Shown here in pieces: positions 24,784 through 64,000 of a DNA stretch of 64,000 nucleotides. The notes beneath the pieces were generated by a model. That model searched no databases and had not been told where the DNA came from. It saw only the letters and a list, made by a program, of their open reading frames with translations. Numbering within the stretch: position 1 is the stretch's first letter; each line of letters opens with the position of its first letter. The position numbers and the translations under genes were made by a program. This DNA comes from Takakia lepidozioides (Eukaryota > Plantae > Bryophyta), in contig CM060734.1 in assembly GCA_030704615.1 (NCBI GenBank), positions 992,001 through 1,056,000 on the forward strand. The letters are read 5' to 3'.

Positions 24784-25486
24784 GCTTGTTGCACCCGTCC
24801 ATCAGCAACCTGCTGCAAATCCTTGCTCGTACCCCACAATGGAGTGTGAGCAACCATGGCAGGCAACTCCGCCATACCATGCATGTCATCCTGCTCTGCT
24901 GGAGGTGGCACATCTCTGCATGGGCATTGCCTTCCAGCAACTCTCCAGGCCAACAAACTGCAGCTGTAAAGGCGGCTAGTGTTGGCATCTTGCCCCGCTG
25001 GGCAGCCGCTATACCCCCAATGAATGTCACAGGAAGCTGTGCACGGCGACCATCGCCTGACTGCCATCCAGGCCTGTAGGATGCTGACTCCTCCCAAAAG
25101 TCCAGGGTGAAGCCCATGGGGTATAACACTGCCCCACCCATTTGGACATCGTAAGAGACCGCGTCTGTCACAATGGCCTTGGTTCGCATTACTGAGCCAT
25201 CGATAGGATGATCCGGCTGCAGTCTAATGGCCAACTGATGCCGTGTCATGCCCCGAGCCTGCTCTGATCCTCCCAAAGATGTCTGTATCTGGAAAGGACA
25301 AGGCTCCATATCCGCCTCCATGAGGCCCAAACCTGCAATAGCAGCTCTGCCCAACATCAGTGGCTGAGCTCCCGAGTCCAACAAGACCCGTTGTGGCCGG
25401 TACTTCTTGCCTGCCGGTCCACTCAAAGTGAAAATGCCTCCCTGGTTGTCTAACAAGACAACTCCAGGTGTCACCATGGCGCTCAA
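24784..25486 (-). pseudogene. Retroviral-type aspartic protease region
   Basis: VLLDSGAQPL catalytic motif and downstream YDVQMGG (YDVLVGG in element 1). Confidence 0.8.
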
Positions 25487-31205: not shown

Positions 31206-32481
31206 CAGGATTTCGAATGGTGCAACGCACAGACATCCCGGCCCACGCATTTCCGGTTCCTCAGACCCAGCCATTGCAGACTGCTCGGTCCAGTAGAGAC
31301 GGATTGGACAATTCTGCACATCCCACAATGCGATTCGGAAGAGTGAAGAGACGACACCCTCCCAACAAGTTGAATGAGACTCGGATTGCCAATGCTCTTG
31401 GGATGGCTTGCACTATTCAGAGCTCCGTGGACGTACCCCCACCCGGCCTTGGGCGTGTGTATCGGATGGCAACGGCCGGCTCGGCTGTACGCGACGATGT
31501 ATACACAATTACGATTGGAGTGGAGCCGACTTGCAATTGTACGGACTTCTCGTTGATGGAAGCAAAGAAGGGTTCGAAGTATTATCCGTGCAAGCATCTG
31601 TATTACATTTACCTAAAGAGGTTGAGGATGAACGTGACTATTGATGACTTTATTCATGCACCGGCGTTGAGCGTGAACGAGCTGCACAAACTCCTCCTTA
31701 GGGATTCCAGAAATCATTGATGGGGCAAAGGGAATCCTCCATATGGATATTTTCAATTGCATTTTGCTGTATCAGACTTTTTTTTGCAGTGTAATGAAAT
31801 GCACCCCAAAACTCCTGGAATGATGCAATATTCCATTCAAACTGAGATCCAACAGAAGCAGTTGTGGGGCCATTTCTGGAAAAATGGCGCCGAATTTCTC
31901 TTTTTGGGGCCGAAAACTGGCTAAGTCCCAACATGCACTAGTACCTGTGTCTGGGAAAATGGCGCGCCATGTCACCTTCCAAATGTTGACATGCACTGGT
32001 ACCGTATCTGGAAAAATGGCGCCAAATTTCTCTTTTTTGGGCCGAAAACTGGCTAAGTCCCAACATGCACTGGTACAGTGTCTGGAAAAATGGCGCCGAA
32101 TTTCCCTATTTTGCGCCGAAAACTGGCTAAGTCCGAACATGCACTGGAAAAATGGCGCCGAATTACCTGTCATGAGGGGACCTATAGCCGCGGAATTCGG
32201 CACCATTTTTCGCCAGAGAGACCTATTACCGCGAAATACGTCGTCGTTTTTTTCAGGTTACGGACCCTATTACCGCGAAATTCGGCGCCATATTTGCACA
32301 TGTCGCTGGGAATTGGCATGAGCGGAAGACGAAATATCATGAGCACAACTGTCAAAACTGCAATTTTCCCTTCAAGGGGCCGAATAATATATTTGTTTTT
32401 CCTGACACATTGCATTAAATTATTGTTTTTTATTGTTTTTTATTTTCGAAAATTGTACTTCTGCTCATGAAAACCGATTGT
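31206..32481 (+). mobile_element. Terminal fragment of the MULE/SWIM-type DNA transposon (inverted copy of ~59223-60365)
   Basis: Same SWIM C-terminus (CNC...CKH) and ~73-bp subterminal repeats (gaaaaatggcgccgaattt). Confidence 0.85.
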
Positions 32482-33902: not shown

Positions 33903-35915
33903 CTATGCTGCAACCTCTTGAGCAGTGACCACTACCTGCTCTGTCAGTGACAATGTCTCATCCTGCCCCATCATCCCATCCTTAAGGACCTCCTCAACCC
34001 GAGAAAAATCCCCAACCTCATCCATCACCGCCGCCTTGGCTGCCAACTCCTTCTGAACCTCGAGCACCTCCCACGTGTGCCATGGATGCAGCCTGCACCT
34101 CGTGGTCCTCACCTGTTCGCCCCCACTCGCTGCTTGTACCGTCTCGGTAGGCAGAGAGACTATCAAGGGAAGTGTACTCCATACTCTGCGCTGCTCAGCC
34201 ATAGCCAAGCTGATAATCCAGGTCAAGCAATTGAGATCCATGGTTTGCCCCAACACCTGACAACGTGATGCCTCAGAAAGAGATGGCACCACCGTGGTAC
34301 CAGTGGTAAAACCCATTGCCTGCTCGCGCTCGTCAGCATTGGGCTCCACTAACTATTGCAACTGACTATCCCACAAGAGGCCAGGTCCACCATCCCGGAA
34401 AGCATGAGATCCTGGAAAGCTGAGCAGTGTAGGCAATGCTGCTCGTGGGTGACCCACCTTATTGACCACTACCAAAGGTGATCGGTCATCGTGTCTCACA
34501 CGTTGAGACTGCCTCCCTATGTCCAAAATGCTATCCACCGTCAGGTTTGGTGGCCGCTGCACCCCATCAAATGCACGCTTGAGCAATGCAGGTGGCATCA
34601 AGTTGGTCCACCATAGTCGTGGGCGATGAGCCCGTGACCCCACTGCAGCTGCATCCAGCAACACTGCTGACCCAAGCCAAGACCGCACTTGATGTACACT
34701 GGCCATCACCTTGGCCCGAGAATCACCCATCAATGGCACATTCTCCAAGATATATGCCGGAGAGTCTGTCTGCTGAAGCTGTAAATAGCGCAGGACCCTC
34801 AACATCTCCCAAAACAGGCGTGACCTTGAGTCTTGTAACCCATTGTCATACCCAGCTGATGAAAGCCCTTGGCAGGGCCAACCTGCCATTACTAAGTGAA
34901 TAGGGCCAACCCGCTCCAAATCATGCGCCCCTAGCAAGGAGATGTCTGCTGGCAAGGCTTGTTGGTATCCACGAACTGCAGACACTGGCAACAAATCAGG
35001 GTACTGCTGCACCAACTGAGCAATATGACGCAGTGAGATGCGTCGTGCAGTCTCATCCCTCTCCATATATAGGTAACGTCGAACTCGTACACCTGCCTGC
35101 AGCACTGCAGCCAATTCAGTGCTAATCCCGCCAAACAAGTCCAGAAGGCATATGCCTTCATCCGGGCACTGCCACACAAGAGATGTGGTGTCCAATGGCA
35201 ACAACTGAGGTGGTCTTGGTGCAATCACCGCATTCTCCTCCTCTCCTAACGGTACAAAGGCCTCTACCCAGGCTTGTTGCACCCGTCTATCAGTAGCCTG
35301 CTGCAAATCTTTGCTCGTACCCCACAATGGAGTGTGAGCAACCATGGCAGGCAACTCCATCGTATCATGCATGTCATCCTGCTCTGCTGGAGGTAGCATA
35401 TCCTCTGCATGGGCATTGCACTCCAGCAACTCTCCAGGCCAACTAAGTGCTGTTGTGAAGGCTGCTAGTGTTGGCATCTTGCCCCGTTGGGCAGCAGCAA
35501 TACCCCCAATGAACGTCACAGGGAGCTGTACATGACAACCATCCCCTGACTGCCATCCAGGCCTGTAGGATGCTGACTCCTCCCAAAAATCCAGGGTGAA
35601 GCCTATAGGATACAACACTGCCCCACCAACGAGGACATCATAAGAGACCGCGTCTATCACAATGGCATTGGCTCGCATCACTGAGCCATCTATAGGATGA
35701 TCTGGCTGTAGTCTAATGGCCAACTCACGCCGTGTCATGCCCCGAGCCTTCTCTGATCCTCCCAGAGATGTCTGTATCTGGAAGGGACAATGCTCCATAT
35801 CCGCCTCCATGACGCCCAAACCTGCAATAACGGCTTTGCCCAACATCAGTGGCTGAGCTCCCAAGTCCAACAAGACCCGCAATGGCCAGTACCTCTTGCC
35901 TGCCGGTCCACTCAA
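33903..35915 (-). pseudogene. Protease plus DNMT3-like methyltransferase of element 1 (in frame with each other; one stop at ~34353)
   Basis: LLDLFGGIST, AGWPCQ, ILENVP, AHRPRLWWTN, EREQAMGF, QVLGQTMD. Confidence 0.92.
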
Positions 35916-36001
35916 AGAAAAAATGCCATCCTGGTTGTCTTACAAGACAACTCCAGGTGTCACCATGGCGCGCTCAAAGGCTGGCCTAGTTGGCAGCTCC
36001 G

Positions 36002-43300: not shown

Positions 43301-46200
43301 TCCGAACCCCTCTAGTAGGAGTTCCATGAACAAAACCTCTAATTTGACTCCCTAGGATGGCTACTGGTGGCAGGATCGTCCCCTTCCTCCTCTGAGGAAG
43401 TGTACTCAGTAGGTCCACTCGGGGCACTCTCTACTGAAGAGGTGGCATGTACCACCCGGGGCGGTAAATGAGGCAATTGCGCCAAAGGGACTCTCAGACC
43501 AAAAGGAAAAACTACTAGCCGAACTAGGACCGGTGGTAGTGTCCTACAAGCTACAACATGTGATGCAACAAAAGAACTCTCTGCTGGCCGATCTCTAACT
43601 GTGCCTAGCAGGGTTAATGAACTAGATGAAATCAACTCACGAATAAGGGCTGATGACGTGTTCCCCGGTGATAGTACCGAGGAGGCAAGAATGGTTGGCA
43701 GGCCCTCCTTGGGTGGGGGAGGTGCTCACTCTCGACTCCGTCCTCTCCTGGGCCGACTCCAATCAACCAGTCCACGAAAGCGGGGCGATGTCCGCAAATA
43801 GTGCGCCCCACACACTCCCTCAACGGAGTGGAACGCCTAGCGACCCTACTGCGCGTGTAGAGCAGGGTGTCGGTGATGGTGCGACACAACACACAACAAG
43901 CCATGTAGGCCACCTGCCACGCAAGATGGACCTCAAGGGCCGAATCAAAATGAATATACGCAAGAAAGGGTGGCTGACAACAGCCTGGCCAACGAGTGTT
44001 GAACCGAAAAAATGTAGCAATAGGGGCCGTCCGGGCTCCGGGGCCTCGGGGTTCAACTCGAGCAGAGATCCAATACTCTTGATACTCCTCTGCAATGGTC
44101 AGGATGCGTCGTAGCATCAGCCTGCAAATCACTGTGGCCTCGGGGCGAGGTACGTCTCCAGTCCTGGTGCTGGAAATGATGCGGTAGAGTCCGATCACCT
44201 GGTACTCAAAGGAATGCTCCCGACGAGGGAGTGCCAATGGTGCAGCCATACTGCCACTCAAAATTCTCCACGTGGTTAGCCCTGTGCTTAACTCAAATGC
44301 AAGAAATCTATCTAGATGTACCTATTGGTTCACTCAGTCTTTTCCTGTCCGAGTCAAAACATAAAACGTCAATAAAAAATGAAAAGAACAAAAATCCCAA
44401 AGGAGAATGACAAAGGTCCAATTCTCCTTCTATTCGGAATACAAAGAGTCCTGACTATTCACTTACCTCCCGGCAGATGTACCATTCATATGACGAGCCC
44501 TGAGCGCGCGCGGTCAGGGTGACGGCATAGTAGTCTAGGAGGGTCGTGGTAAGTTGCGGTGTAGGTTAGGCTCATTGAACCGCCTACCCGACTACGGTTA
44601 GTGCATGGGGTCCGTGGTCGTATATGGTGGCTATGATCACTATTTAAGTTCTACCGGCAAAGAGAAATCACGTACTCCTCTTCACAGGGCAAGTTTGCGT
44701 TTCTAAGTCCTACAATCTACTCAGTAACTACCTTCCAAGTCTTTGTGTTTTATTGTCTAATTCCTACCGCCTAGGCCCCCGAGCCGCCTATAGCCGGGAC
44801 ATGTTTTAATCCCTTCACAAGGCACTTGCCGAGCCTAGAGGGAAAATCTTCCTCTCCCAATGCCCCTCTTTCGCCGAGGGTTTGAGTTCAAGTCACTTCT
44901 AATGGAAGGTCCAACGCTTCCTACCCCAGTGCCTAAATACTTTGTTTTAGCAAAGGAGTGGCCAAAATGCCTATCGTCATCCAATAGGTTCACCAAGTTC
45001 AATAAGGTGGTTCTAAGCCCCTCAACTCAACAAGTTCAATTAGTTTAATCAATGCCCTACAGGCTATAACGAGCACCACGTGCATCTATCCTATTTAAGT
45101 AATTTCGCAAATCAGAAATGTTGGAAAATAAAAGAAATTAAGAAAAATCAGAAAAATTACCTCCCCTATGGGAAATCATGTGGGGAATCCAAAGATACCC
45201 TTGGCGCCTAAAGATGCCCTTGGGAACCCAATGAGAACCGAGGAACACCCGGGAACCGTTCCCTGCCGCGGGGAACTGTCGCGGCTCTATCGGATGAATG
45301 AATCTCGCTGAGAGCTCATCCCTGCATACTACATTCGTTAGTCCAAAACATGCATGCGTAAATAATAAAATAACCACTGGTGGATCCAAGCCAGATTTCA
45401 CCCCCTTACATTATTTTAAGGCGCTGGTGCGCTTTCCCTCCGTGGAAAAAGTCATCCTCTACCTTGGGCTCTGACACAAAGGCTCACTGTAGCCGAGTTT
45501 TTAGGACATAGTACTTTCTCTCCTTCCTTGTCTCTCGAGGTCTCCGCCTCTAGCTCACTGCTCCCATGCCCGCTTGGCTCTCTCTTGGAGTCCTAAGAAC
45601 GCTCCCCTCCAAGGCTACGTCCTCCCAAAATCCTAGATTTTATCTACCACTGGCGCCTTAGATAATGGCTCCTAACCCTTAGAGAGGTATAAATTGAATC
45701 TAATAACTAAAGGTAAGAATACCCCCCTTTAAGGGAATTTGCAGACGCATTGCCCGCTGGGTAAAACACCCCGCCACGTGGCGGGGCTCAGATCCGCGCG
45801 TAGTGGTCCAAACCGTGGACCGCTGCGGTTAACGCCAGCGTCCGCCGGTCCGTCTCAACTTCTGGTTATCCAGCGGTAAAGACCCGCACCCTGCTCGCAC
45901 GCTTCAGGGCCTCACGCCTGAGCCACGCGGCTGATGTTCTTGATCTCAGTACGACTTAAGGTCAGCGCTGGGGCCCCACTCCCGTACGTCGTGGCTGGGC
46001 CACGGCTGCCTCCACGCTTTTAGTAATCGAGTCCCTACTCTCTAGGCGCAGCACCCGCGCTCCTCCCGGGCTGCTCGCGACTTTGGGGCAGCTGCTGTCA
46101 AGCGAAATTAGCCCGCCCAAACCCCAAGACAAAAAATACAACCCATATTTTCAAGGTTAACCACTCGAGCCCAGGCTCGAGCTCTCCTATTGGTGGAGGC
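40304..46200 (-). mobile_element. Older degenerate Gypsy-like element (gag with several zinc knuckles, long leader); right boundary uncertain
   Basis: LPWFSGEAHENPEYHV, FPTTMRGRASTWY, IRQGPTEEVADF, CFLSGL, CKKCGRTTHPTEDC, CLHCGQRGHPLERC in 40944-42379. Confidence 0.6.
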
Positions 46201-46209
46201 ACGTCCTCT

Positions 46210-49200
46210 ACACTTTGAACCATTTTTTAATGACCTCATACTTGCTCGGTACCTGTTCAACGACATGTACAACATACTGGCAAAGTTTCAAAACAATCAA
46301 AAATTGTTGAATGAAGAAACCATTGGTTCACCCATTGCAATATTTTAAATCAAACTCATACTTGTCCGGTACCTTTAAGAAGGCATGTACAATGCAATGG
46401 CAAAGTTTGAAAGCAATCAGATCATTTCATCAAGTAATCATTGGTTCATCCTGTGAACCATTTTTGATTGATCTCATACTTATCCGGTCCATGTAAGAGG
46501 GCATGTAGAACATACTGGCAAAGTTTCAAATTGATTGACCATGTACTTGTCCCATCCCTATAAGAGGGCATATACAACGCAATGGCAAAGTTGCAAAGCA
46601 ATAAAAAATCATTTCATCAATTAATCATTGGTTCATCCTTTGAATCATTTTTTATTCGCCTCATACTTGTCCGGTTCTTCTAAAAGGGCATGTACAACAC
46701 ACTCGCAAAGATTGGAATGAAAATAAAACCATTTGATGAAGGAACTGTTGGTTCACCCATTGAACCATTCTTTATTCACCTCATTCTTGTCTGGTACCTG
46801 TAATAGGGCATGTAGAACACACTTGCAAACATTGGAATGAATCAAATATCATTTGACCCCCGAACTACTCGTTAAACGAGTAACGATTAATCACGAATAA
46901 ATGAACGGACGAATAAATCATTTGCCTCCCCATCGACGCGCTCACCCCTCAAGCCATTCCATAATTGAATTGAATTTAAATTAATTTTAAGCCAATAAAT
47001 AGGTTTGCACTGCCTTTCATTGGGGGTTTCTGGCACGTATCAATTTTGTTTTTGGCTCAATTTTGTTCTGCGGCTTCAAGCATCCCACCGCTACTCCCCC
47101 GCCAAAATTTGGACCAATCAAAAATGCCCCAAAAAAAAAAGTTTTCTCTTTGTTCACTGTTGCATAACTCTCTGTGAATAGTGCATGAAGTAGAACACAA
47201 ATCAAGTTTGGAGTGCAAAACAGGGAAGAAACTATGGTTTTGCGTCCAAATGGATTTTGTTCACTCCCAAATTTGGCACGCACATTGCATATGGAGTCAT
47301 TACATGCCCCATTCAAAAATGGAATGAAAAAGAAATCATGAGCACGCGAAACGCGGTCCAACAAGTCCCAAAGTAATAGCAGATCCAATGAAATACATTC
47401 AATGGGTGAACGGATGGTTGCCCATCCAAATCATTTCTGTTTGCTTCCAAACTTTGCCAGTACGTTCGAGACATCCTCTCATAGGTCCCGGACTATTATG
47501 ACATTAATCGAAATTCATTTGATGGCTCAACGGATTGGTTGGCCATTGAAATGGTTCGCTTTGAGACTTGGCCAGTATATTCAATGTACCATGCAAGAGG
47601 CCTCAGAGTAATATGAGATCAATCGAAATTCGTTCAATGGGCCAACGGATGGTTGCCCATCCAAATGATTTTCGTTCGCTTTGAGACTTGGCCAGTGTGT
47701 TCAATATACCCTCTGATAGGTCCCAGTGTAATATGAGATCAATGGAAATTCGTTCAATGGGCCAATGAGGCATTCAGTTGTCATCTGGTTTTTGTTCATT
47801 GCGAAAAAAAAATCTTGCAATGCGTGCATGGCTATTGCACCCATTGAACGGATGTGGTTGAAGCCCCTCTTTTGCCCGCATGTGCTTGAACATGTGTGCA
47901 ATACATATGCGGAGACACAACAGACGAATAAATCATTTGCCTCCCCATCGACGCGCTCACCCCTCAAGCCATTCCATAATTTAATTTAATTTTAATTAAT
48001 TTTAAGTCAATAAATAGGTTTGCACTGCCTTTTCTGGCACGTATCGATTTTGTTTTTGGTTCAATTTTGTTCTGCGGCTTCAAGCATCCCATTGCTACTC
48101 CCCCGCCAAAATTTGGATCAATCAAAATTGCCCCCAAAAAAAGGTGTTCTCTTCGCTCACTATTGAAGAACTCTTTATGAAGAATGCATGAAGTAGAATA
48201 CAAATCAAGTTTAGAGTGCAAAACAGGGAAGAAACTGTGGTTTTGGGTCCAAATGAATTTTGTTTGCTCCCAAATTTGGCACACATGTTGCATATAGAGT
48301 CATTATACGCCCCATTAAAAAACAGAATGAAAAAAAAATCATGAGCACGCGAAACGCAGTCCAACAGGTCCCAAAGTAATAGCAGATCCAACGGAATACA
48401 TTCAACGGGTGAACGGATGGTTTCCCATCCAAATCATTTTTGTTTGCTTCTAAACTTTGCCAGTACGTTTGAGACATCCTCTCACAGGTCCCAGACTAAT
48501 ATGAGATCAATCGAAATTCATTCAATGGCTCAACGGATGGTTGGCCATCAAAATGATTTTGGTTCGCTTTGAGACTTGGCTAGTATGTTCAATGTACCAT
48601 GTAAGAGCCCCAGAGATATGAGATCAATCGAAATTCGTTCAATGGGCCAACGGATGGTTGCCCATCCAAATGATTTTCGTTCGCTTTGAGACTTGGCCAG
48701 CGTGTTCAATGTACCCTCTGATAGGTCCCAGTGTAATATAAAATAAATCGTTAACGATTTATCATGAATTATCCAACAGTGAAACTGTTGGTTCACCCTT
48801 TGAACCATTTTACATTGACCTCATACTTGTCCGGTAACTTTAAGAGGGCATGTACAAGACACTCGCAAAGTTTCAAATCAATCCAAAATCATTTGGCATG
48901 GGAATGATTGGTTCACCCATAGCCAATTTCAGGGGCTGGACTTGCAATTTGAGGGGCTTCAATTGCCAATTTGAGGGGCTGGACTAGCAATTGCCATTTC
49001 ACAGGCTACAATTGCAATTTGAGGGGTTGGAATTGCCATTTCAGGGGCTAGAATTGTAATTTGAGGGTTGGAATTAAATTGAGGGGTTGGAATTGACAAT
49101 TTCAAGGGCTCTAGTTACAATTTGAGGGGCGGCCGGAGTTGGCCATTTTATGGACTGGCATTACCAATTTTAAGGGCTTGAATTGCATTTTGAATTGTAA

Positions 49201-50780
49201 TTCAAGGGTTAGAATGGGCCATTAGGGGGCTAGAATTACCAAAGCAATGACATCCAAAGCAGTGACATCCAAAGCAATATAAAATCATTTGATAGCGGAA
49301 TGATTGGTTCACCCTTTCAACCATTTTTTATTCACGTCATACTTTTCCGGTACCTGTAAGAGGGCATGTGGCAGACACTTGCAAAGCTTCAAAGCAATGT
49401 AAATTCATTTCATAGGGGAACAATTGGTTCACCCTTTCAACCATATTTGACTGACCTCATACTTGTCCAGTACCTTTAAGATGGCATGTGAAAGACACTT
49501 GCAAAGCTTCAAAACTCTCAAAAATCATTTGATATGTTCATGATTGATTCACCCTTTCAACCATTTTAGATTGACTTGAAACTTGTGAAAGACCTGTAAG
49601 AGGGCATGTACAAGACACTTGCAAAGTTTCAAATCAATTTAAAATCATTTGGTAGGGGGACGATTGGTTCACCCTTTAAACCATTTTAGATTGATGTCAT
49701 ACTTCTCAAAGACGTGTAAGAGGGCATGTAGAAGACACTTGCAAAGTTTCGGAGCAATAAAATATCATTTCATTGGGGAAGTTTCCGTTCACTCTTTCAT
49801 CCAAATTTGAATTGAACTGGATTTTTACTAAATAAAATGATTTAGAGGGCATAGGATTGTGGATTTGTGGGGCGTAATGATTTTGTTTTTGGCTTGATTT
49901 TGTTTGGTGAGTTGAACCCTCACACCACCACATCCTTGCCAAAAAATGTACCAAAGAAAAATGTTTGAAAAAAAACGTTCATCCTTTGCTCTATGCTCAC
50001 TATTGCAGTACTCTCTATGAAGAGTGCATGAAGTTGAAGATAACTTCACCTTGGAGTGCAAATGAGGGAATAAAATGTGGTTTTGGATGCAAACGATGTC
50101 TGTTCATGGTGATATTTTGCATGCAGACTCTTCATGTTGTTATCAAGCATATGGCTTCAGAATGGAATTAAAAACAATTCATGTGCAGGTGAAAGGTTGT
50201 TTCTCATCTGTACGACACATACCTCCGTTATGAATTTGAATAACCCATTCAAACAACTTTGTTGAAGTTCAACTTTGGTCCACATGTGCTTAAGTACGTA
50301 CAAATCACATACACAAAGTTGCAAGCGAAGAAAAAATAATTTGTCCCCCGAACGACTCGTTAAACCTTTCAACCAATTTTCAATCATGAATCATTTAATA
50401 GGGGAACTATTGGTTCACCATTAGAACCATTTTAGATTGACCTCATACTTGTCCGGTAACTTTAAGAGGGCATGTAGAAGACACTCGCAAAGTTTCAAAT
50501 CAATCTAAAATCATTTGGCAGGGGAACGATTGGTTCACCCATTGAACCAATTTTGATTCACGTCATACTTGTCCGGTACATGTAAGAGGGCATGTGGCAG
50601 ACACTTGAAAAGCTTCAAAGCAATATAAAATCATTTGATAGCAGAACGATTGGTTCACCCTTTCAACCATTTTTTATTCGCCAGATACTTGTCCGGTATC
50701 TGTAAGAGGGCATGCTGGCCCGTTGAACCATTTTGATTAACTTCAAACTTGTCAAAGACCTGTAACAGGGCATGTAGAAC
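46210..50780 (+). repeat. Arrays of a 120-bp AT-rich unit in both orientations, with a ~1 kb direct duplication (46905-47765 and 47925-48740)
   Basis: Unit tcatacttgtccggtacctgtaagagggcatgt...ttggttcaccc; exact 120-bp period at 49321/49441/49561/49681; reversed units at 47400-47765 and 48400-48740. Confidence 0.88.
48920..49240 (+). repeat. ~20-bp degenerate minisatellite (aatttgaggggctggaattgc)
   Basis: Roughly 15 visible units. Confidence 0.8.
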
Positions 50781-50949
50781 CCTTTTCCATATTTGAAGTA
50801 AGTATGAATAGTCTGAGATCTCTCAAAGTAGAGATATTGTGACCTGCATTATAGTACTCCATTGAAGCAACATTCTTGTCCAATATAATGCATGCAACAT
50901 CAGTTGGAGCGTCGTCCATGACCCCATTGGTGTTGTTGGCGGGAATGTG

Positions 50950-52130
50950 AATTGTTGGATGCACAGCTTCTTTTGCTACGGACGGGTGAGAGAATGATAA
51001 GTATTGATCATTGTTCGTACAATTGCTTGTATGTGCTAAAGTAGTTTGACAAGCAAATGTTCACACAATGATCACTAACTACCATTCTCTCACCCATTCG
51101 GAGCAAAAGGAGCTATGCGTCCAAAATTGTCGCCTGAACTTCTCATTCGCCACGTGTCATGATCCATGAGCGCTCGGCTGCCATGTCAACATTGGTCGTC
51201 TTGGAACTTGCCGGGAACCTGAAGTGTTGGATGCACAGCTTGTTCTGATACGAACGAGTGAGAGAATGGTAAGTAATGATCGTTCTTCGAACCCTTGGTT
51301 GTACATGCTATACTAGTTTCACATTGTTTTAAATTGGTTGTAAAGGAGAACCAATCGTTCCTCATCATGGCAATATGTGTGTATTTGCGAGCTTTTCAAT
51401 TGGTTCATGTGACGAAATCAACGTTCCCCAAACAAATGATTATGTATTGCTTTGAAGTTGTGGCGATGAATCAATTTCCTATTACTACATCAGATAAAGA
51501 ACAGAAACATGATATTAATGAATCATCGCTTTTCAATTGGAGGGCATTTTGACAGGTCTTTCCATTAGGTAAACAGTCTCACATGTGGTGTCATCCTCAA
51601 GGTTTTCGGCAGAGAGCAGGTTCATTGCCAGTAAATCACATATTTCTCTCTACCTGACTTGATCCCATGTCAAACAATGCAATGGAAAGCAAACTAGAGA
51701 GATATATATGCGATTTACTGGCAATGAAACTACTCTCTGCCGAAAACCTTGAATATGACACCAGATGTGAGACTAATTACCTAATGGAGGGACCTGTCAA
51801 CATGCCCTACAACACAAAATGAGGATTCGGTAATCTCTTGTTTCTGTTCTATATTTGAAGTAGTAATACGAGTTTCATTCATTGCACAGCTTCAAAGCAA
51901 TTAAAAATCAGTTGACTAGGGATTGCATCTTTCGTCACAAGAACGATTTGAAAACCTTGTAAATTCACCCATCTTGCCATGATAAGGAACGATTGGTTGT
52001 CATTTACAAGCAATTTACAGCAATGTGAAACTAGTGCAGACCGTATAAGCAAGAATTCGGACAACGATCATGAACTACCACGCTCTCACCCATTCGGAGT
52101 AGAAGAAGCTATGCATCCAGAACTGTCGTG
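50950..52130. repeat. Foldback inverted repeats (small 50955-51125; large ~51225-51652 vs ~51695-52120)
   Basis: For example ggttttcggcagagag vs ctctctgccgaaaacc; cattgccagtaaatc vs gatttactggcaatg. Confidence 0.8.
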
Positions 52131-52368: not shown

Positions 52369-53994
52369 CTACAAGTTTCTATCCATCTTCCAGCAATTTT
52401 TGGGCTCAGGCCAATTGAATAGCCCCGTCATGAAACGCTTCATAACATTTTCTAGTTTGTACCGCAACTCTACTGTGTTTACACACAAGTTTTCCAGAGC
52501 CGAAGCAAAACAAGTTCCAGTAGACATATCGTTGAGCAGGCTTGCATCAAACGTGTTACCCCCATTTACTGCCTGGGCTATCTTCCCAATTGCAAAGGTC
52601 TTTGATAGCATGGTTAGAGGGGGTCTACGAGGTGTGCCATCTGACTGGTTGTTGGCTACATTATGAACAATTGCAATTTCAGGTGCAATCCACCATCTAT
52701 GTGCGAGAGTCTTTATCATCTTGTCTCTGCTCTCGAAAATGTACAACGTGGTTTTTGGGTCATCCATCGTGGATGCCATCCCCCAATCGCATACCCCGAT
52801 GTACACATCTTCAGACCTTTGTGGAAAATGCAGCAAGATGTTGTCGGGGGACATGTCGTTGTGCAAGAGGTGGTGATTATGGACGTTGAGCATGATGTGC
52901 AAAAGCGCCCATGCCAATTGGGTGCGATTCTATCGGAATCGAACTAGTCGGTTGACCTCCTACATTTCCTGCTTCGTCCCCCGTCGTTCCATTAACTTCT
53001 TGTTATCCCGATCATTCCCCCATTTCCTGTCAATACTCAACCATGATCGTATGGTCCCCCCATTCCACCAATGTGTGTAACCTTCATTTCGACGTGGATG
53101 CAACGCAAAATACTTTATGATGCCGAAATGATGGATTCTTACAGCCAACGCCTCATTGTTATGTTGGACTTTGGCAAGTTCAGCATTTGTTTCCCTGGGC
53201 GTTTTCCCTGCTAGCTCCCAGGATGGAGGAATGAATTGATCCCCAACAATTCTAACCCTCTGAATTGTACCATACCCTCCCTGTTTGGGCGCGTCGAGTT
53301 GTTGTACCTGTGCGTTTGTGGATATGTATCTCACATTCAATGCCGCATCCGCGGATGAGGACCCTGCCTTCCATGGGAGTGGTTTTGTATGTCGTTTGGC
53401 GTGGGCCTTTGCCATGTCAGACCACCAATCCACAAGCACAAACAACTCCTCCTCCGAAGTTGGCATGCGACCTTCAGCTACAGGTGTTCTCGTAACAAAC
53501 TTGTCCATGGTTTGCCTCAGATTCCATGTGGCATCATCGGCCCGGTCCTCCATCCATTTCGTGAACTGGAACTTCGCCCTGTCCTCCTCCCATTCATCCT
53601 CGGCCGAAGCCTCCCTCATTTTCATCTCCATATTGTGCTGGAATCTAAGGAACCCCTCATTCCCATGTCAGACATACAAAAGATTCAAACGCATTATGTC
53701 ATTGTCCTTCAAATAATCCAGCACTACTTGCTTCACCACCTTCGCGGCCTCTGCGCTTGGATAGTCTTTTTTGTTGACCTAACTATCCCGTTCATGTGCA
53801 TGTTTACGCTTCCTACCTTTACGCCCACTTCCCGAGGAACCCCCTGACACTGCGTTCGAAGCAATGTTTCCGGACATGATGAAAGTACTCTGCGGAATAG
53901 ACGCGGTTTCGTATCGGAAAACTAAACCCAGACTATTGATAACCTTATATACTAGCGGACCAATTTCCTCACCCTCTATTGGTATAGTACCCAA
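52369..53994 (-). pseudogene. Divergent, apparently intronless protein kinase, disrupted
   Basis: QGGYGTI (Gly loop), LAGK, NE, LLHNDMSPDNILL, CDWGMA, WIAPE across ORFs 52960..53631 and 52369..52917. Confidence 0.82.
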
Positions 53995-54244: not shown

Positions 54245-54830
54245 GTCCAGGTAGCGGTCGCACCTATGGGTGGTCACAACTAATAACAAAACAAAAAAAC
54301 TGCTGCGACCACCTCCTGCTGGTGGTCACACCTTTTTAAAAACAAAAAGAAAATGTGCGACCCCCCCTAAGCGGTCGCACGCAACTGTTAAAAAACAAGA
54401 AAAATGTTGCGACCACCCCACTGCTGGTGGTCGCAGCTATTAAAACAAAATACAAATTGTGCGACCACCAGTAGCGGTGGTCGCAACTGTTTAAAAAAAA
54501 AGAAAAATAGTGCGACTACCCCCTGCTGGTCGTCGCACCTATTTTATAAAACAAATGCTGAGACCACCCCCCTGCTGGTGGTCGCAGCTATAAAATCTGC
54601 GACCACCCCTTGCTGGTGGTCGCACCCAATTTAAAAAAAAGTAAAAATGTGCGACCACCCTCTGCTTGTGGTCACACCTATTAAAAAAAAATGAAAAATG
54701 CTGCGACCACCACCTGCTGGTGGTCGCACCCATTTAAAAAATAAGTAAAAGTGTGCGACCACCCCCTTCTGGTGGTCGCACCTATTTTATATAAAAAAAA
54801 TTGTACGACCAACTGTTGCTGACGGTCGCA
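54245..54830. repeat. ~60-bp tandem units, each a TGCGACCACC-Nx-GGTGGTCGCA hairpin plus an A-rich linker
   Basis: About 10 units read directly. Confidence 0.85.
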
Positions 54831-56903: not shown

Positions 56904-59160
56904 CAGTTTCCCAAGTTACTCTTGGTAATTTGGTAAACTCCCGGTAAATTGGTAAGAAATGATAAATCATGGTAATAAACAAAACCACTTTGTTACAACA
57001 CAGTTTTGATAGAACTGTTGGATAAGCCAATGATTAGTTGCCAAGTATACGAAGAATCCATGAGTTGTGTTCTTATACACATCCAAGTTTCAATATTGTG
57101 TCTATCATCCATCCAAATATAGACACTCTAAAAGTAATGTGTCTTGTGTGTTCTAAGAGAAAGGGTGTGTGCATGTCCTTTCATCAAGGGAGAGAGATCT
57201 ATCCTAAGAGTACATTAGCTTTATGACATAATTTATTAGACAACTAAGACAAACCAATGACCACTAGGTCGTGGAGGTTTTGTCTATAATGTGGTTTTGA
57301 ATGCTCATCTTCTTTCTTGTTGGAGTTAAACAAAGAGATATGGGGTTCCCAATCACACACCACAATACGGATCAGAGCCATATATTCTATTGGTTTTTCT
57401 TTTTTACATGAATTATGCATAACAATTTCAGATCTCCTCTAGGTTTATAATCATATCGAGGGTCATCTGGCCAATTTTTGATCACCATAACCAGCCTGTC
57501 AAGATTCTCAACCTGCAAACGACAACGACGGAGTGCTATGAGGACACCTGCAAGACTAAAAACTCGTTCGGTCTCAATTTGGGACCCCGGGATGCCAAAG
57601 ATTTGTTTGGCAAGATATGCAACGTTGGGAAATTGTTGCTCATGATCACGCCACCATAACAAGGGATCGGTTGTTGCAGTTATGAGGAACAATGAATCGC
57701 TGAAATAATGAAAGTTCAGCCTTCACTACTGCAGCACTTGCTTCTTTGTTTGATGCTCCCACACCAAACATATTGATGTCCTCATATGTTTCAGGAGATG
57801 AAACAACTTCAGACTCGCATGTAGCCGGGTTCAGCCGCTTAAAACAAACCATCAGCAAATGCAATAGACATTTCTGGTCATAGTCCTGAACAAGTTGTAC
57901 AGCAGCGTCACGGCCCACATAATTTGACACAAGTTTCAGCCCCTTGAAACGAGGATCCAACATAAGCGCAAACATGTTATGCGCCTTGCGTGCATCAAAA
58001 TGTTGTAGAAATGCAAGGAAAGGTTTGAGAAACATGTAACACCTCTTGTCGTATCCTACTTTTCAGTAGGAGAAGCTCCATTTCGAACACATCTGGCGGT
58101 TGCGTCTCCTCATCAAACTCCAACATCTCCCTTTGCATGATAACTGAGATGGATATGGACGCATTGAGTGCATCAGAAAGTAACCAATGACCTCGAGATT
58201 GGTTTGCCACACAAGCTGTCACGACAGATTTCAAAGAACTTGTAACAACCTCTGCAATAGCCCAGATTTGGGGCTTAGGAACTCTTTGCTGGAGCGTCAG
58301 ACTTTGACGACCATAACAAGTGACAATGGCCTCTTTGAACTCCATGGTTTCTTCAAACATTATCACCTTTGATGTAAATCTGGTTTTGACGGGAGTTTTC
58401 AGTTTCCGACGCCGTAACCCTGAATCCACACAGGCCTTGTTCTACTCAATTCTGCCCTTTCAACTTTTCTTGGTCCATGTGATTGTTTTTTGTGGTGACG
58501 GTTGAGCATCGGAAACTGAAATCTCCTTGAAATCTACACAAACTTTGGCCTCATTTGTTGCGTATTGGCATGCTTTAGACATCACATGTGCAAAGCATGT
58601 GCCCTCAAAAACTGTAAGGGATTCCAAAACATCGCATGATACGACAGATCTGAGAGCGGCAGCCATTGTGCTCAAATTACCTCCTTCATCCTTGACAAAG
58701 GCAATAATGCGTCTGGTCAAATCAAAACTGTCGAGTAAGGTTTTCAACTAAACTGCCATCGCTGCCCCTGATGTGTTAGACACTTCAAATAGACCCACAG
58801 TAACATGAACAGGAACCCACTTAGAACTAATGAAATTGATTACCAAGGCAAAAAGTGCTGACTCCACCCCTGCTCATCCATAAATCGAAGCTGACAGATG
58901 TAGAGACACAACTTCCAAGGGAAGGCAACACATGACGATCCATCGTCTTAGCAACCATTGACGGCAAAACCTCAACCACAAATTGTCTCCGAGAAGGAAA
59001 TATGACACGAGGATACCGCCTCAAAACCAATCTTCTAAGCCACAAATTTTCAACAGATGAGAGGGCTCTGTAACCTTTAGCAATGTAAAGTGTAAGGTCT
59101 TCCAAAAATTGCACTTGCTGCTCATCTATTTGCTTGTAAGGATTTGTGGACCCAAAGGAG
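56904..59160 (-). mobile_element. Truncated hAT DNA transposon with transposase pseudogene (57387-59114)
   Basis: SFDLWMS, FVKDEGGN, CFAH, LDPRFK, DPLLWW...IPGSQIETERVFS (hAT dimerisation domain); candidate end CAGTTTCCCAAG with GGTAA subrepeats. Confidence 0.88.
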
Positions 59161-59222
59161 GTTTGCTATTTCATGAGCATGAGCGGCATGAGCGGCATGA
59201 GCGGCATGAGCAGAGTAGTAAC

Positions 59223-61430
59223 ACAATCGGTTTTCATGAGCAGAAGTACAAATTTCGAAAATAAAAAACAATAAAAAACAATAATTTAATGCAATGTGTC
59301 AGAAAAAACAAATATATTATTCGGCCCCTTGAAGGAAAAATTGCACTTTTGACAGTTGTGCTCATGATATTTCGTCTTCCGCTCATGCCAATTCCCAGCG
59401 ACATGTGCAAATATGGCGCCGAATTTCGCGGTAATAGGGTCCGTAACCTGAAAAAACGGCGACGTATTTCGCGGCAATAGGTCTCTCTGGCGAAAAATGG
59501 TGCCGAATTCCGCGGCTATAGGTCCCCTCATGACAGGTAATTCGGCGCCATTTTTCCAGTGCATGTTCGGACTTAGCCAGTTTTCGGCCCAAAAAAGAGA
59601 AATTCGGCGTCATTTTTCCAGACACGGTACCAGTGCATGTTGGGACTTAGCCAGTTTTCGGCCCCAAAAAGAGAAATTCGGCGCCATTTTTCCAGAAATG
59701 GCCCCACAACTGCTTCTGTTGGATCTCAGTTTGAATGGAATATTGCCTCATTCCAGGAGTTTTGGGGTGCATTTCATTACACTGCAAAAAAAAGTCTGAT
59801 ACAGCAAAATGCATTTGAAAATATCCTTATGGAGGATTCCGTTTGCCCCATCAATGATTTCTGGAATCCCTAAGGAGGAGTTTGTGCAGCTCGTTCACGC
59901 TCAACGCCGGTGCATGAATAAAGTCATCAATAGTCACGTTCATCCTCAACCTCTTCAGGTAAATGTAATACAGATGCTTGCACGGATAATACTTCGAACC
60001 CTTCTTTGCTTCCATCAACGAGAAGTCCGTACAGTTGCAAGTCGGCTCCACTCCAATCGTAATTGTGTATACATCGTCGCGTACAGCCGAGCCGGCCGTT
60101 GCCATCCGATACACACGCCCAAGGCCGGGTGGGGGTATGTCCACGGAGCTCTGAATAGTGCAAGCCATCCCAAGAGCATTGGCAATCCGAGTCTCATTCA
60201 ACTTGTTGGGAGGGTGTCGTCTCTTCACTCTTCCGAATCGCATTGTGGGATGTGCAGAATTGTCCAATCCGTCTCTACTGGACCGAGCAGTCTGCAATGG
60301 CTGGGTCTGAGGAACCGGAAATGCGTGGGCCGGGATGTCTGTGCGTTGCACCATTCGAAATCCTGCTGCAGATAGAGCATCCGCCTCATTCTGAGAGAGG
60401 CTGCAACCCGGTGCAACAGGCCAGACGCCCGGAGGCTCCGGCATTCCCTGAATCCCGTACTTGGGCTTGCCAAATACACAGGTCATTATGTCGTGCCTAC
60501 AGAACCAAAATGTCTGCGTTGTGGCGTGAGCAAATGTGGGAGTAAAAAATCTACCGTTGAAACAAGGTGCAGGTACAGCACCGTGTGGGTTCCTCCGAAT
60601 CATCTCACCACAGCGTGCTCTCGTATCCACCCGGATGGCGCAACACTTCCCTCGAAATGCCGGCAATGTCCTCGCAATTCTCCACTGTGACTCCGACACT
60701 CTTGTCTCCACAATGGGAATGTTGTATTGCTTTACTACAGATGGCTCGTTATGTTGCCGGGGCACGTGCCCTGTGCTCAAAGGAGATGGCGATCTTGAAC
60801 GTGCAGGACTTCCGGTGCTCGACGAGACCTCCTCGGACAACATCACCGGACCACGAGGGAGCGTGCGAATATTCTTGTCAGCTCGCCATGAATCCTCTTC
60901 TCCGCCAGGTGCCTCGTCAAGTCTTCGTCTCACTGGACGGGTATGAACATCTCCTTCCAAATGTTGGCCTCTTCGCAGCAATGGCGTGTCCCGAAGGCCC
61001 TCTCGCAAGGCCGCCGCCCACTTCCGAGGATTCTTCGATCTAGAGGCAGTCCGCATCAGCATTTCCTGCCTGTCCGGCCCCAAGCCCCACTGTTTCCCTT
61101 TCAAGAACTCGTTGTACCTGCATTGCTGCATAATTGACCTCACAATGTCCTCCGTTGTGGCAGTGAGGATGTCCACCAGATGCGCCGCAGAGGAGGCACG
61201 CCAGGAAGAGTGCACTGATTCGGCCATGTTTGTCGTGGGCATGTCGGTGTCGGAGTCGAGACACATTTCCTGCACAAGCACATGTTTAGGTTACAAGCAA
61301 GTTACAAATATGGCCAAGAATAATATCCAACGGGACGCGAATTCGTGCAACTCACCTCCCGCATATAGTCGCCGAACTGGAGGAAACGATAATGCCACCA
61401 TGCTAGCCAACTGACCATTGCTCCTTCGTC
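59223..61430 (-). mobile_element. MULE-like DNA transposon arm: subterminal repeats plus 3' part of a SWIM-finger transposase-like gene (59851-61430, intron ~61270-61355)
   Basis: WLAWWHYR...PTTNMAESVHSSW (TxNxxESxH motif), CNCTDF...PCKH SWIM finger; N-terminus missing. Confidence 0.72.
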
Positions 61431-61656
61431 TGATTTCGGGCTAAGTCCCTAGACTGGCTGGCTCTGAACTGGAAATTCGGCGCCATTTTCCAGTTCCAGG
61501 CCGTATTGCCGTTCAGGGACTTAGCCATTTTCGGGCTAAGTCCCTAGACTGGGTGGCCCTGAAGTGGAAATTCGGCGCCATATTCCAGTTGTAGGCCCTA
61601 TTGCCGTTCAAGGACTTAGCCATTTTCGGACCTCATTGTGTTTTTCATGAATGCAG

Positions 61657-63419
61657 GTACTGTAAGTTCTCCCTTTTGGAGAAAGGTCATCTGTCTTTCG
61701 AGCCACCATTCTTCCTGGCATGGAGGAACCCTGGGGCTGACTCCATGTACACTGACGATATTGTGAAGGAGTGGCATCTGGAACATTTGCGTGATTGCCC
61801 TTGGTATGTGGACCTTCCGCCCGGCTCGCTCGACCCATCCGAGTTTCAATTGAAGCTGGATGCTGAATTCCGACGAAACCGGGCTCCGCTGCCTCCGTTG
61901 GGTGCAAAAGAGGCAAAAGCGCTTGCGAACTCCAGGAAAGCGGCAGAGCTTGCTCAGGCAGGAATTCAGGAGAAATTGCATGAGAAGAGTAAAGGTCAAA
62001 GGAAAAGGACAAGGAAACAGGTGACTGCAGTAACACCCAAAAAGAAGAAAACCATCGGGGCATCAGAGGAGGCGCAGGAGGGGACCCAAGAGAGTGACTC
62101 CGACGCCGATTTTGTTCAAGGTCCTGCGACTGCTGTTGCTCCTACCCAGTCCCCGGTCGTCCGGGTTCCCAAGTCAGTTCGGAGTGGGATTGGCTCTGCC
62201 AAGAAGTTGGCATTTGAGGGCGAGCCTACACGGCGGTATTCGGCGGTGACGTTTACGCACAGGCCAAAGCTAGAACCTCCAACCATCATCCAATGCGTCA
62301 ATGAGAGCTTCCTTGACGCTCTCGCTGCCAGGGCGAAGAAGGTGGCATACAACAAGTCTCTGGCGGAGCAGAAGGGGAAAGCCAAGAAGAGGGCTGCCGG
62401 TACAGAGCCTAAAGCACCCCTGGTTTTGAAGCCATGATGGAATTCTTCACGGCTGTGAGCACGAATTGCAAGAGCACTCGGGGGGGGGGTTGAGGTGGAG
62501 AGAGCTTGCGACATGATTCTCCTCGACATTCCAGATGGGGAGCTGCTGGAGGGCCTGGATGGTGTGCCCACCTGGAACAGGTTTACTGAGGACTACTGGA
62601 AAGCCGGGTTTGGGCTGGCGGGGATGCTTCTGGATGACGGTGGATGTGTGGTTGTCCTTGCCATGAGAGGGAAGACCACAGAGAATGCGGTGGCAAGGTG
62701 GACACCAAAAAGTGTCACCCCGGTCCTCCTCAGAAAATGGTTCTGCATCAGTACGCAGGGGTTGCGAACAGAGGGCCAAAGTGTAAGTTATCAATCTATT
62801 GCATTCACTTCATATTGTGGTGTATGTTAAGTAGACCCTGGAATTGATCCCTTCTTTGTTGGATGTGCAGACATTGGTGTTTGAGGCATATTGCTTTGTG
62901 AAGAGAGGGTCTACGTTCAAATTCCGCAACGACGGTCGTCTTGTTGATGCCGTTGTGGACCCTGTAACCTACGATGTCCTCTACAACTATGTGCCCCACT
63001 CTAGTATGCCGAAGGACACAAAGACAGGCAAACCGTGGCGGTACAGCCGGACCCGGAGCCCTGCTTTCATCCAAACCCTCATGGAGACGTGCTCGGATGT
63101 CCAAGGGCGGATTCTGGACCTCACATGCGGCACGGGTAAGCCTTCACGTGCTCAGTTTGTCCCCTGGCCCCATTGCAATTGCATGCCGCAAGCTATTAAC
63201 CGCCCGCTTTGTTCCTCAGGTGCTTCAATGTGGGCAGGGACGTTGTCCGACAGGCATGTGTTCGCCTTCGAGCCAGATACTGCCCTCCACAACTTGGAAC
63301 TTGCAGCGGCTGAACGTCTGCCGAAAGAGGAAGAGGCATCCTCGGAGGATGAGGAAAAATCCGAGAAGGAGCAGGGGGAGGAAGTTGGGATCGAGGCCGA
63401 GGAGCCCCCGGTTTACGAG
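61657..63419 (+). pseudogene. Intron-containing beta-class N6-adenine/N4-cytosine DNA methyltransferase-like gene with a charged N-terminal extension; frameshifts near 62433 and at poly-G ~62480
   Basis: ILHGC...CDMILLDIPDG...LLDDGGCVVV...FEAYCFVK...RSPAFIQTLMETCSDVQGRILDLTCGTGASMWAGTLSDRHVFAFEPD after removing GT-AG introns 62783-62870 and 63136-63219. Confidence 0.7.
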
Positions 63420-64000
63420 TGAGTGGTGGCATTGTAAGTTGCCTCCAGATTTTGTGAGGCACCTCCCTCCGCTCTCTTATTTCATTGAAAACCCTTTCTG
63501 GTTGTGCTGGTATTGACATTCTTCAAGTGGATTTGTTCTTACTGTAGGATGCCAAGTACTGCCGGAGGGACGTCTACACCGGAGTTCATGGGCAGGAGGA
63601 ACGTGCCTTTTTTTGCCAGGGGGATTTCATGCCTAGTCCAGAAAGGGAGTACATCCTTCCTACTTATGCTGCCCGGCTTGCTTCGGTGTCCATTAGGAGG
63701 TGTTCCGAACGTAGTCGTGTACAGCAGATTTTAGACGAGGCAAGCCTCAAGAAAATGAAGATGAGGGAGGAGGCAACAGCTATTAGAGCCCGTCGGGCTC
63801 GTAGATTTGTGTTGGATTCTGCTGAGGAAAGTGGGGGAGAAGACGCAGAAGATTCCCAGGAGGTGAGGTGGACAGTCCCCCAAGGAGAGGACGGGATTTT
63901 TGAGAGGCATAGTGGAACTGATGCATCACAGAGCTCAGAGGATGAGGGGGATGAGGGGGATGAGGAAGAAGGTGGGGCAAGTTCCTCGGAGGGTGTAGGA

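Follow-up and report, generated by a model that had tools for sequence, protein, structure and literature searches.

The 64,000-nucleotide stretch of DNA analysed here (the window) is repeat-rich, with Gypsy elements, a hAT relic and satellites, and towards its right-hand side it holds two divergent, truncated genes. On the reverse strand, 59851–61433 carries the 3′ part of a SWIM-finger gene, likely for a Mutator-type transposase, with a predicted intron (61355–61270) and its 5′ part absent; on the forward strand, a spliced gene with a methyltransferase-fold domain runs from 61657 to about 63850. At the junction of the two genes lies an internal pair of 95-bp units (61434–61630), 92% identical to each other, whose motifs are those of a subterminal repeat array at 59406–59703 containing AATTCGGCGCCAT and GGACTTAGCC motifs in both orientations (families D2, D3 and D5). 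The candidate left end is a cluster of ATGAGC(A/G)G (59163–59243, forward strand; five units at 59179–59236) adjoining the hAT relic. This relic (57387–59170, reverse strand; Dimer_Tnp_hAT, E 3e-14) is a decayed transposase broken into at least five ORF pieces; its 5′ side is cut off at the start of the cluster, which may belong to either the hAT or the SWIM element. A second, truncated left-arm copy, comprising the end region, subterminal repeats (31875–32290) and the SWIM 3′ end, lies at 31206–32481 on the reverse strand; it begins at the position equivalent to 59223 and matches at 98.6% (760 nt) and 97.1% (475 nt). Elsewhere in the window, two related Gypsy-type elements (23419–24801 and 34353–35939, reverse strand) have a C5 methyltransferase domain within their pol region (PF00145, E 1.7e-12 and 5.4e-11) with a GWPCQG motif; they resemble the Klebsormidium DNMT retrotransposons as the available text of PMC5890265 presents them, and would extend that system if the host is a land plant. 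Split protein-kinase-like ORFs (52369–53667, reverse strand; Pkinase, E 2.6e-8), possibly the cargo of another element, lie next to a region of satellite DNA and an imperfect palindrome of 890 bp (51228–52119, 78%). Two further regions, 46200–50800 and 54270–54830, consist of degenerate tandem repeats whose units measure about 120 and about 105 bp, respectively.

The methyltransferase-like gene is organized in several exons, all on the forward strand. The first one present (61657–62782) encodes the end of an N-terminal helical domain, a low-complexity linker and the first half of the methyltransferase-fold domain, including DMILLDIPD (62510–62536, as read from the sequence), in which DIPD (62525–62536) aligns with homologues at the motif IV position; the exon follows an AG acceptor at 61656 and is supported by a contig of public run X8 spanning 61654–62446 and by the homologue alignment. 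The next exon (62871–63135) encodes motif X and the first part of motif I, with RSPAFIQTLMETCS starting at 63054 and ILDLTCG at 63111, and a third (63220–63418) encodes the end of motif I, motif II (RHVFAFE, 63252–63272) and an acidic linker. Both are supported by a spliced X8 contig, the former also by phmmer relatives and a profile match to 5hek (E 3e-6), the latter by the homologue alignment. DMILLDIPD and motifs X, I and II were found where the initial annotation had placed them. The two GT-AG introns between these exons, 62783–62870 (88 nt) and 63136–63219 (84 nt), are removed in a single 770-nt X8 contig that maps to 62484–62782, 62871–63134 and 63219–63425, which bears out the proposal of spliceosomal introns, X8 and X11 being taken as RNA by guess only. 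A likely last exon (63548 to approximately 63850) with a conserved SP...LP.YA motif and a frameshift at 63618 follows a predicted intron (63419–63547), whose removal was not seen in the X8 contig, which runs to 63425; the exon matches the same-place exon of metagenome locus L001 (2 of 2,000 shuffles) and, weakly, the Ceratodon purpureus protein P0061 (53 of 2,000 shuffles; BLASTP E 8.9). The first intron and the predicted third one have counterparts at matching places in L001 and L002, where the second is absent. Hence, the initial annotation of a gene at 62430–63419 was right about its introns and the motifs just named, but its coordinates were too short on both sides. A diverged subfamily under the same organism label (X8, X11) is about 82–89% identical to window positions 62740–63105 and 63229–63436, with a shorter first intron and other sequence before 63229.

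Several features of the window copy show that its reading frame is broken. ILHG (62442–62453), which the initial annotation had read as part of the beta-class motif order, stands in a reading frame that a stop at 62427–62429 closes, is out of frame with DMILLDIPD and was rejected as motif III. An additional base at 62414 is present in many contigs from other copies (37 in X1, 20 in X3, 20 in X2 and 1 each in X7 and X8), and it takes a 280-codon upstream ORF into the FEAMMEFF frame. The G run at 62480–62489 varies among copies by −1, −2 or +3: the −1 form (11, 9 and 1 contigs) joins the FEAMM frame, and the ILHG frame would be joined by the −2 form (12 and 1 contigs). As neither of the two frames gave a significant score in comparison with homologues, the choice between them rests on the 62414 evidence. 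Further downstream, 40 X2 contigs have an extra G at 63618 that the exon from 63548 needs. The 5′ end of the gene is lost, as had been supposed: the X8 contig covering 61654–62446 continues 385 letters upstream in sequence unlike 59300–64000, a 20-base piece of this extension is absent from the window, and its last codons read RLLY, as in the RLLYRY of the Ceratodon protein P0060; at least one 5′ exon is therefore missing. A profile of the Ceratodon N-terminus did not find the upstream ORF of the window; a separate alignment gave only a 13-residue likeness. Of the differences listed between this gene and X8, only 3 of 11 are synonymous. With its missing 5′ exon or exons and three frameshifts (62414, the G run at 62480–62489, and 63618), the window copy is, as judged from its sequence, a 5′-truncated pseudogene.

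Homologues of the gene were collected in several searches. A phmmer search with the second ORF gave 12 matches, 11 of them relatives at 32–52% identity; the twelfth, P0005 (Sushi repeats), was dropped as spurious. A family profile then yielded 28 more rows among 1,899 candidates, three metagenome loci (L001–L003) among 106 stretches, and two full-length C. purpureus proteins, with one cluster mate, among 7,995 scored candidates. An earlier search for longer homologues found none among 974 candidates, and scans of viral contigs and of 55 genome-contig stretches likewise found no family member. The Ceratodon proteins (P0060–62) are 788–803 aa long, and the spliced window product, its exons joined by coordinates, matches the whole domain of both P0061 (E 5e-20, 26% over 231 aa) and L002 (E 1e-25). 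Between P0060 and P0061, identity is 216/231 in the domain, 196/240 in the N-terminus, 129/179 in the linker and 91/103 in the tail, making the domain the best-conserved part (94% vs 72% in the linker). Subfamilies are 23–52% identical and look multi-copy in several hosts: one cluster has 24 members on separate long contigs, and the Ceratodon paralogues carry three different chromosome tags, from which we infer different chromosomes. All named homologues come from the moss C. purpureus, one of them labelled ‘DNA methylase N-4/N-6 domain-containing’ in UniRef; no Marchantia-named protein appeared in the family searches, though most matches are unnamed. The Ceratodon homologues, together with the plant-metagenome label of one public run matching the window, suggest a non-seed plant as the putative host. 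Most homologues are exon-B fragments. MAFFT repeatedly placed exon A (62495–62674) on the columns of exon B (62871–63134), which may be an artefact or may reflect beta-alpha-beta similarity within the domain; alignments A8, A10 and A12, which show this placement, were excluded from folding, and in A11 the last ~40 residues are misplaced in three exon-A rows.

The fold of the domain emerges from profiles and structure comparison. Pfam finds no methyltransferase match in the window exons, and the relatives stay below the PF01555 gathering score of 26.7, the best of them, P0011, reaching 26.5 bits and P0061 18.3 bits. A single-sequence PDB search gave three matches, all irrelevant, and an exon-A profile alone gave none. 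The exon-B profile, by comparison with the PDB, retrieves M1.HpyAVI (5hek, E 3e-6; E 1.5e-5), 5hfj and MboIIA (0.003) and, more weakly, CcrM, BceJIV-type and RsrI entries (14 sequences among the matches listed). The full profile is collinear with CcrM residues 30–257 (E 0.0036, about 215 positions), with DAPE of the Ceratodon proteins falling on DPPY. Consistent with a beta-class enzyme, motif IV precedes motifs X-I-II, as seen both in the profile alignment and over 231 aa of the window protein. An AlphaFold model of P0060 built from 14 rows has a mean pLDDT of 31.8, with values no higher than about 56 in the domain; a single-sequence fold (pLDDT 33) was set aside. With this low-confidence homologue model, Foldseek, which also draws on sequence, gave 43 matches at E ≤ 1e-3, led by CcrM (E 4.5e-8) and followed by BceJIV, HpyAVI, MboIIA, rotifer N4CMT, RsrI and PvuII; among the matches listed at that cut-off, 26 of 26 are DNA methyltransferases, one entry being putative. 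The top 20 entries from VIA on the same model are DNA amino-methyltransferases (Z 8.6–10.6), with Z no higher than 6.6 below them, the top Z of 10.6 being reached at an rmsd of 5.1 over 185 residues. In addition, all 10 best family matches in Atlas share family or clan with N6_N4_Mtase, and eight of nine phage or plasmid tblastn matches are annotated as DNA methyltransferases, the ninth being unannotated. Collectively, these partly independent lines establish the amino-methyltransferase fold, and the beta-class fold and motif order proposed in the initial annotation stand, with profiles and the P0060 model both matching CcrM, M1.HpyAVI and MboIIA.

Both signature motifs of the fold are altered across the family. 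At motif IV, canonically DPPY or SPPY, the window has DIPD, L001 and L002 have QFPD and P0060–62 have DAPE; the catalytic (D/N/S)PP(Y/F/W) is absent from all three families with a motif IV exon, and in each of them the base-stacking Tyr is replaced by Asp or Glu. The first Pro of the motif is also lost, and the first position is Gln in one family. DIPD itself has no substitution among those listed at ≥3% in four runs. At motif I, neither DPFxG nor DxFxGxG occurs in any of the 71 stored family proteins, which typically have D-(L/C/W)-(T/S)-x-(G/A/S)-T-G; these proteins are silent on motif IV because most are exon-B fragments. Residues that would lie around the cofactor pocket are kept, namely the motif IV second Pro, a Trp after it and the Glu of strand 2, the acidic end of that strand reading FAFE in the window, LAFE in L002 and LALE in P0060/61. 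D467, P474, G476, P488, W490 and N491 of P0060 are invariant across six aligned rows. For the rotifer enzyme N4CMT, the available text of PMC10406627 describes the Tyr of SPPY as modelled stacking on the target base, and a cofactor analogue in contact with motif I residues, with a Trp, with the Asp of strand 2 and with the Pro just before that Tyr, while the accessible part of PMC8885841 reports that changing SPPY to APPA abolished activity.

DIPD had been taken as either a decayed DIPY or an inactive variant. The former does not hold, as the acidic fourth residue is common to three families only about 25–28% identical over the domain, so that decay in this copy was rejected; the latter therefore fits. 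Owing to the same family-wide residue, the proposed second, independent methyl-writing system is unlikely, and membership in the eukaryotic 4mC-writer group was rejected, the family having no SPPY. From these residues we infer that the domain is not a decayed writer but either a pseudo-enzyme under conservation or an enzyme whose chemistry has changed. An active SAM-dependent enzyme of the second kind could write 4mC or 6mA with an unusual site, or could methylate something else, for example a basic side chain in a protein, which the acidic residue would suit. The constraint on the domain (216/231 between the Ceratodon paralogues), the invariant P0060 residues and the kept strand-2 Glu speak for it, as do some amino-methyltransferase clades with unusual strand-4 motifs (described in the available text of PMC4738411); yet we regard it as unlikely, given a stacking aromatic turned acidic in three of three families, the lost first Pro, Gln at the first position in one family, the lack of DPFxG in all 71 proteins and the loss of N4CMT activity when S and Y become Ala (PMC8885841, in the part available).

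Repeats of the same kind accompany the methyltransferase-like gene and its neighbour. GGACTTAGCC occurs at 59569, 59643, 61517 and 61612 on the forward strand and at 61439 and 61534 on the reverse strand, and AATTCGGCGCCAT at 59539, 59675, 61474 and 61569 (forward) and 59413 (reverse); both motifs are present in both arrays, in agreement with the initial annotation. The SWIM frame is stop-free over 479 aa, with its intron predicted from GT-AG boundaries and frame, and against an X8 contig 15 of the 30 listed differences (39 in all) are synonymous. Its SWIM finger scores 17.2 bits against a Pfam cut-off of 19.6, Atlas SWIM leads stay under 0.9, and no MULE or other transposase domain matched in Pfam or Atlas, the 5′ part of the gene being absent. 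The peptide TTNMAESVH at 61236 resembles the MULE motif around the third catalytic Glu, and the putative Mutator-type identity rests on this likeness.

The element is repeated, as shown by the second left-arm copy and by run X2, in which 22,270 contigs cover 30 of 30 bins of 59300–64000 at 80–100% likeness (9,699 at ≥99%, 8,169 at 95–99%, 3,692 at 90–95% and 710 below). Their summed depth stays within about three-fold across both genes and is not a copy number. Among the variant places listed for X2 over 59300–64000, 25 of 106 are C<->G changes, high for transversions. Ten X2 contigs have loose ends at 61439, which suggests longer or different junctions in other copies. The left end is approximate, and the right end is outside the window. 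Locus L001 carries three ATGAGC(A/G)G units immediately 3′ of its gene, in the opposite orientation to the five in the window (0.04 expected); this would fit inverted ends, but an alignment of the L001 flank with the window end is not significant (114 of 1,000 shuffles score as well), leaving a hint only. A perfect 8-bp hairpin, CTCCCCGG ... CCGGGGAG (L001 1413–1434), directly follows that cluster and may mark an element end. CpG observed/expected ratios of the element coding parts (0.55–0.86) overlap those of neighbouring elements (0.47–0.90), and thus give no sign of escape from methylation; the Gypsy elements with C5 domains are the most CpG-depleted in the window (0.47–0.56).

The view of one element with two divergent, 5′-deleted genes is upheld for the shared repeats, for the repeated unit and for the 5′ loss of the methyltransferase-like gene. 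Linkage of the two genes in one element is no more than likely, as no locus outside the window (L001–L003, each at most 1.85 kb long) holds both and no contig among those listed bridges them. Alternatively, the two may come from separate elements, or from a chimeric derivative, and be adjacent only here. In favour of this, the internal repeat pair is where both genes are cut, contigs with loose ends or joints reveal further junctions at 61439 and 61536, and none of the loci outside the window contains both genes. However, X2 contigs cover all bins at a depth within about three-fold (again not a copy number), the SWIM gene is flanked on both sides by the same motifs, run X9 from another organism holds pieces of both genes, and the inverted motif cluster of L001 lies just 3′ of its gene, its flank alignment being non-significant; we consider separate origins quite unlikely. 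It is decidedly unlikely that the gene belonged to the host, as a domesticated relation of a Marchantia-type acquisition, and was captured and amplified as passive cargo that does nothing for the element; this would agree with the intact Ceratodon gene models, their UniRef methylase label and the intron positions conserved between the window and L001/L002, but not with the many unrelated subfamilies (23–52% identical) that look multi-copy in several hosts, the lack of a Marchantia-named match among mostly unnamed ones, or the TSPPY of MpDN4MT1 (bioRxiv 2021.02.12.428880, in its available text).

Taken together, we favour, by a little over even chances, the reading that the window copy is a truncated, frameshifted copy of a repeated spliced gene that likely served as a transposon accessory, encoding a non-methylating, DNA-binding pseudo-methyltransferase. 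To the splicing, fold, motif order, changes at motifs IV and I, conservation and repetition described above, this reading adds an origin and a role. Counting against it are the two genes being found together only in this window, the SWIM gene matching no transposase family, the non-significant L001 end motif, motif IV being legible in three families only, the low-confidence homologue model, the few synonymous differences to X8 in this gene (3 of 11) and the CpG ratios. A prokaryote or phage would have donated the gene to a non-seed-plant lineage, where it acquired introns and an N-terminal helical domain and came to ride on the element, its domain keeping the cofactor-pocket residues (the second motif IV Pro, the Trp and the acidic strand-2 end) and losing the base-stacking aromatic. 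An intact element would then encode the SWIM transposase and, divergently, an accessory protein of ~800 aa made of a helical N-terminal domain, a basic/acidic linker, the methyltransferase-fold domain and a short C-terminal motif. Without the stacking aromatic, the domain may bind DNA, perhaps together with SAM, and not methylate it; its likeliest targets would be the element's own GGACTTAGCC and AATTCGGCGCCAT arrays, which it could simply bind, or whose target bases it could flip or occupy. By analogy with VANC and TnpA, such a protein might aid transposition or counter host 5mC silencing. A bolder generalization, which we hold to be doubtful, is that DNA transposons widespread in non-seed plants carry a bacterial restriction-modification-type methyltransferase rebuilt with a conserved acidic residue where the catalytic Tyr was, and use it on their own repeats, either to deposit a non-5mC mark through new chemistry or to flip cytosines and shield them from silencing by the host. 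If so, this would be an epigenetic system run by transposons and distinct from the 4mC writers of rotifers and Marchantia, and hosts might have drawn such acquired genes from it.

We found no paper in the open-licence literature on this family, its motif change or its link to a transposon. Two eukaryotic 4mC writers derived from bacteria are named in the available texts of PMC8885841 and bioRxiv 2021.02.12.428880, and each is a host gene that retains SPPY. The present finding points to another beta-class family in plants, one that is multi-copy and intron-bearing and has intact members in Ceratodon, a model moss (among them KAG0632178.1 and KAG0614198.1); in it the fold has been kept under selection while both signature motifs changed. 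It makes testable how transposons reuse captured bacterial methyltransferases, be it for binding, anti-silencing or new chemistry, and it cautions that a moss gene labelled ‘N-4/N-6 methylase’ is not necessarily a 4mC or 6mA writer.

Compared with known systems, the family shares the fold and the order of motif IV followed by X-I-II with PF01555 beta-class enzymes such as M.CcrMI, M1.HpyAVI, M1.MboII, M.RsrI and M.PvuII. Unlike them, it has DIPD, QFPD or DAPE, no DPFxG and a sub-cut-off Pfam score, together with spliceosomal introns, an N-terminal helical domain of about 240 aa and a C-terminal motif. In being of PF01555 type, intron-bearing or eukaryote-resident, and probably of prokaryotic origin, it resembles N4CMT (PMC8885841) and MpDN4MT1a/b (bioRxiv 2021.02.12.428880), as their available texts describe them, and N4CMT structures are among the structural matches of the P0060 model. 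According to the same texts, these host genes are low in copy number, encode SPPY and have demonstrated 4mC activity, and N4CMT also contains a chromodomain; our family, in contrast, is repetitive, has no SPPY and gives no chromodomain match in Pfam. The N6A-methyltransferase domain of the DIRS1 retrotransposon, judged inactive from catalytic and substrate-binding substitutions in the accessible part of PMC4738411, is likewise a transposon-borne amino-methyltransferase fold and sets a precedent for inactivity; it is of Group 2 (PCIF1-like) within a retrotransposon polyprotein, whereas here a beta-class domain is encoded by a separate spliced gene of what is likely a DNA transposon. The retrotransposons of Symbiodinium and Klebsormidium, which, as far as the available text of PMC5890265 goes, carry C5 DNMTs able to methylate CG de novo, also represent capture of a DNA methyltransferase by a transposon; theirs is a C5 enzyme in retroelements, ours an amino-methyltransferase fold with altered motifs. 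Finally, the available texts of PMC5735166 and bioRxiv 10.64898/2026.08.24.746577 describe VANC of the Mu-like VANDAL elements and TnpA of Spm as accessory regulators. Like those elements, the one studied here has an extra gene and tandem arrays of short motifs in its non-coding parts, as seen in one copy; the likeness serves as a working analogy, with no sequence relation expected, through which we propose DNA binding and anti-silencing for the methyltransferase-like protein.
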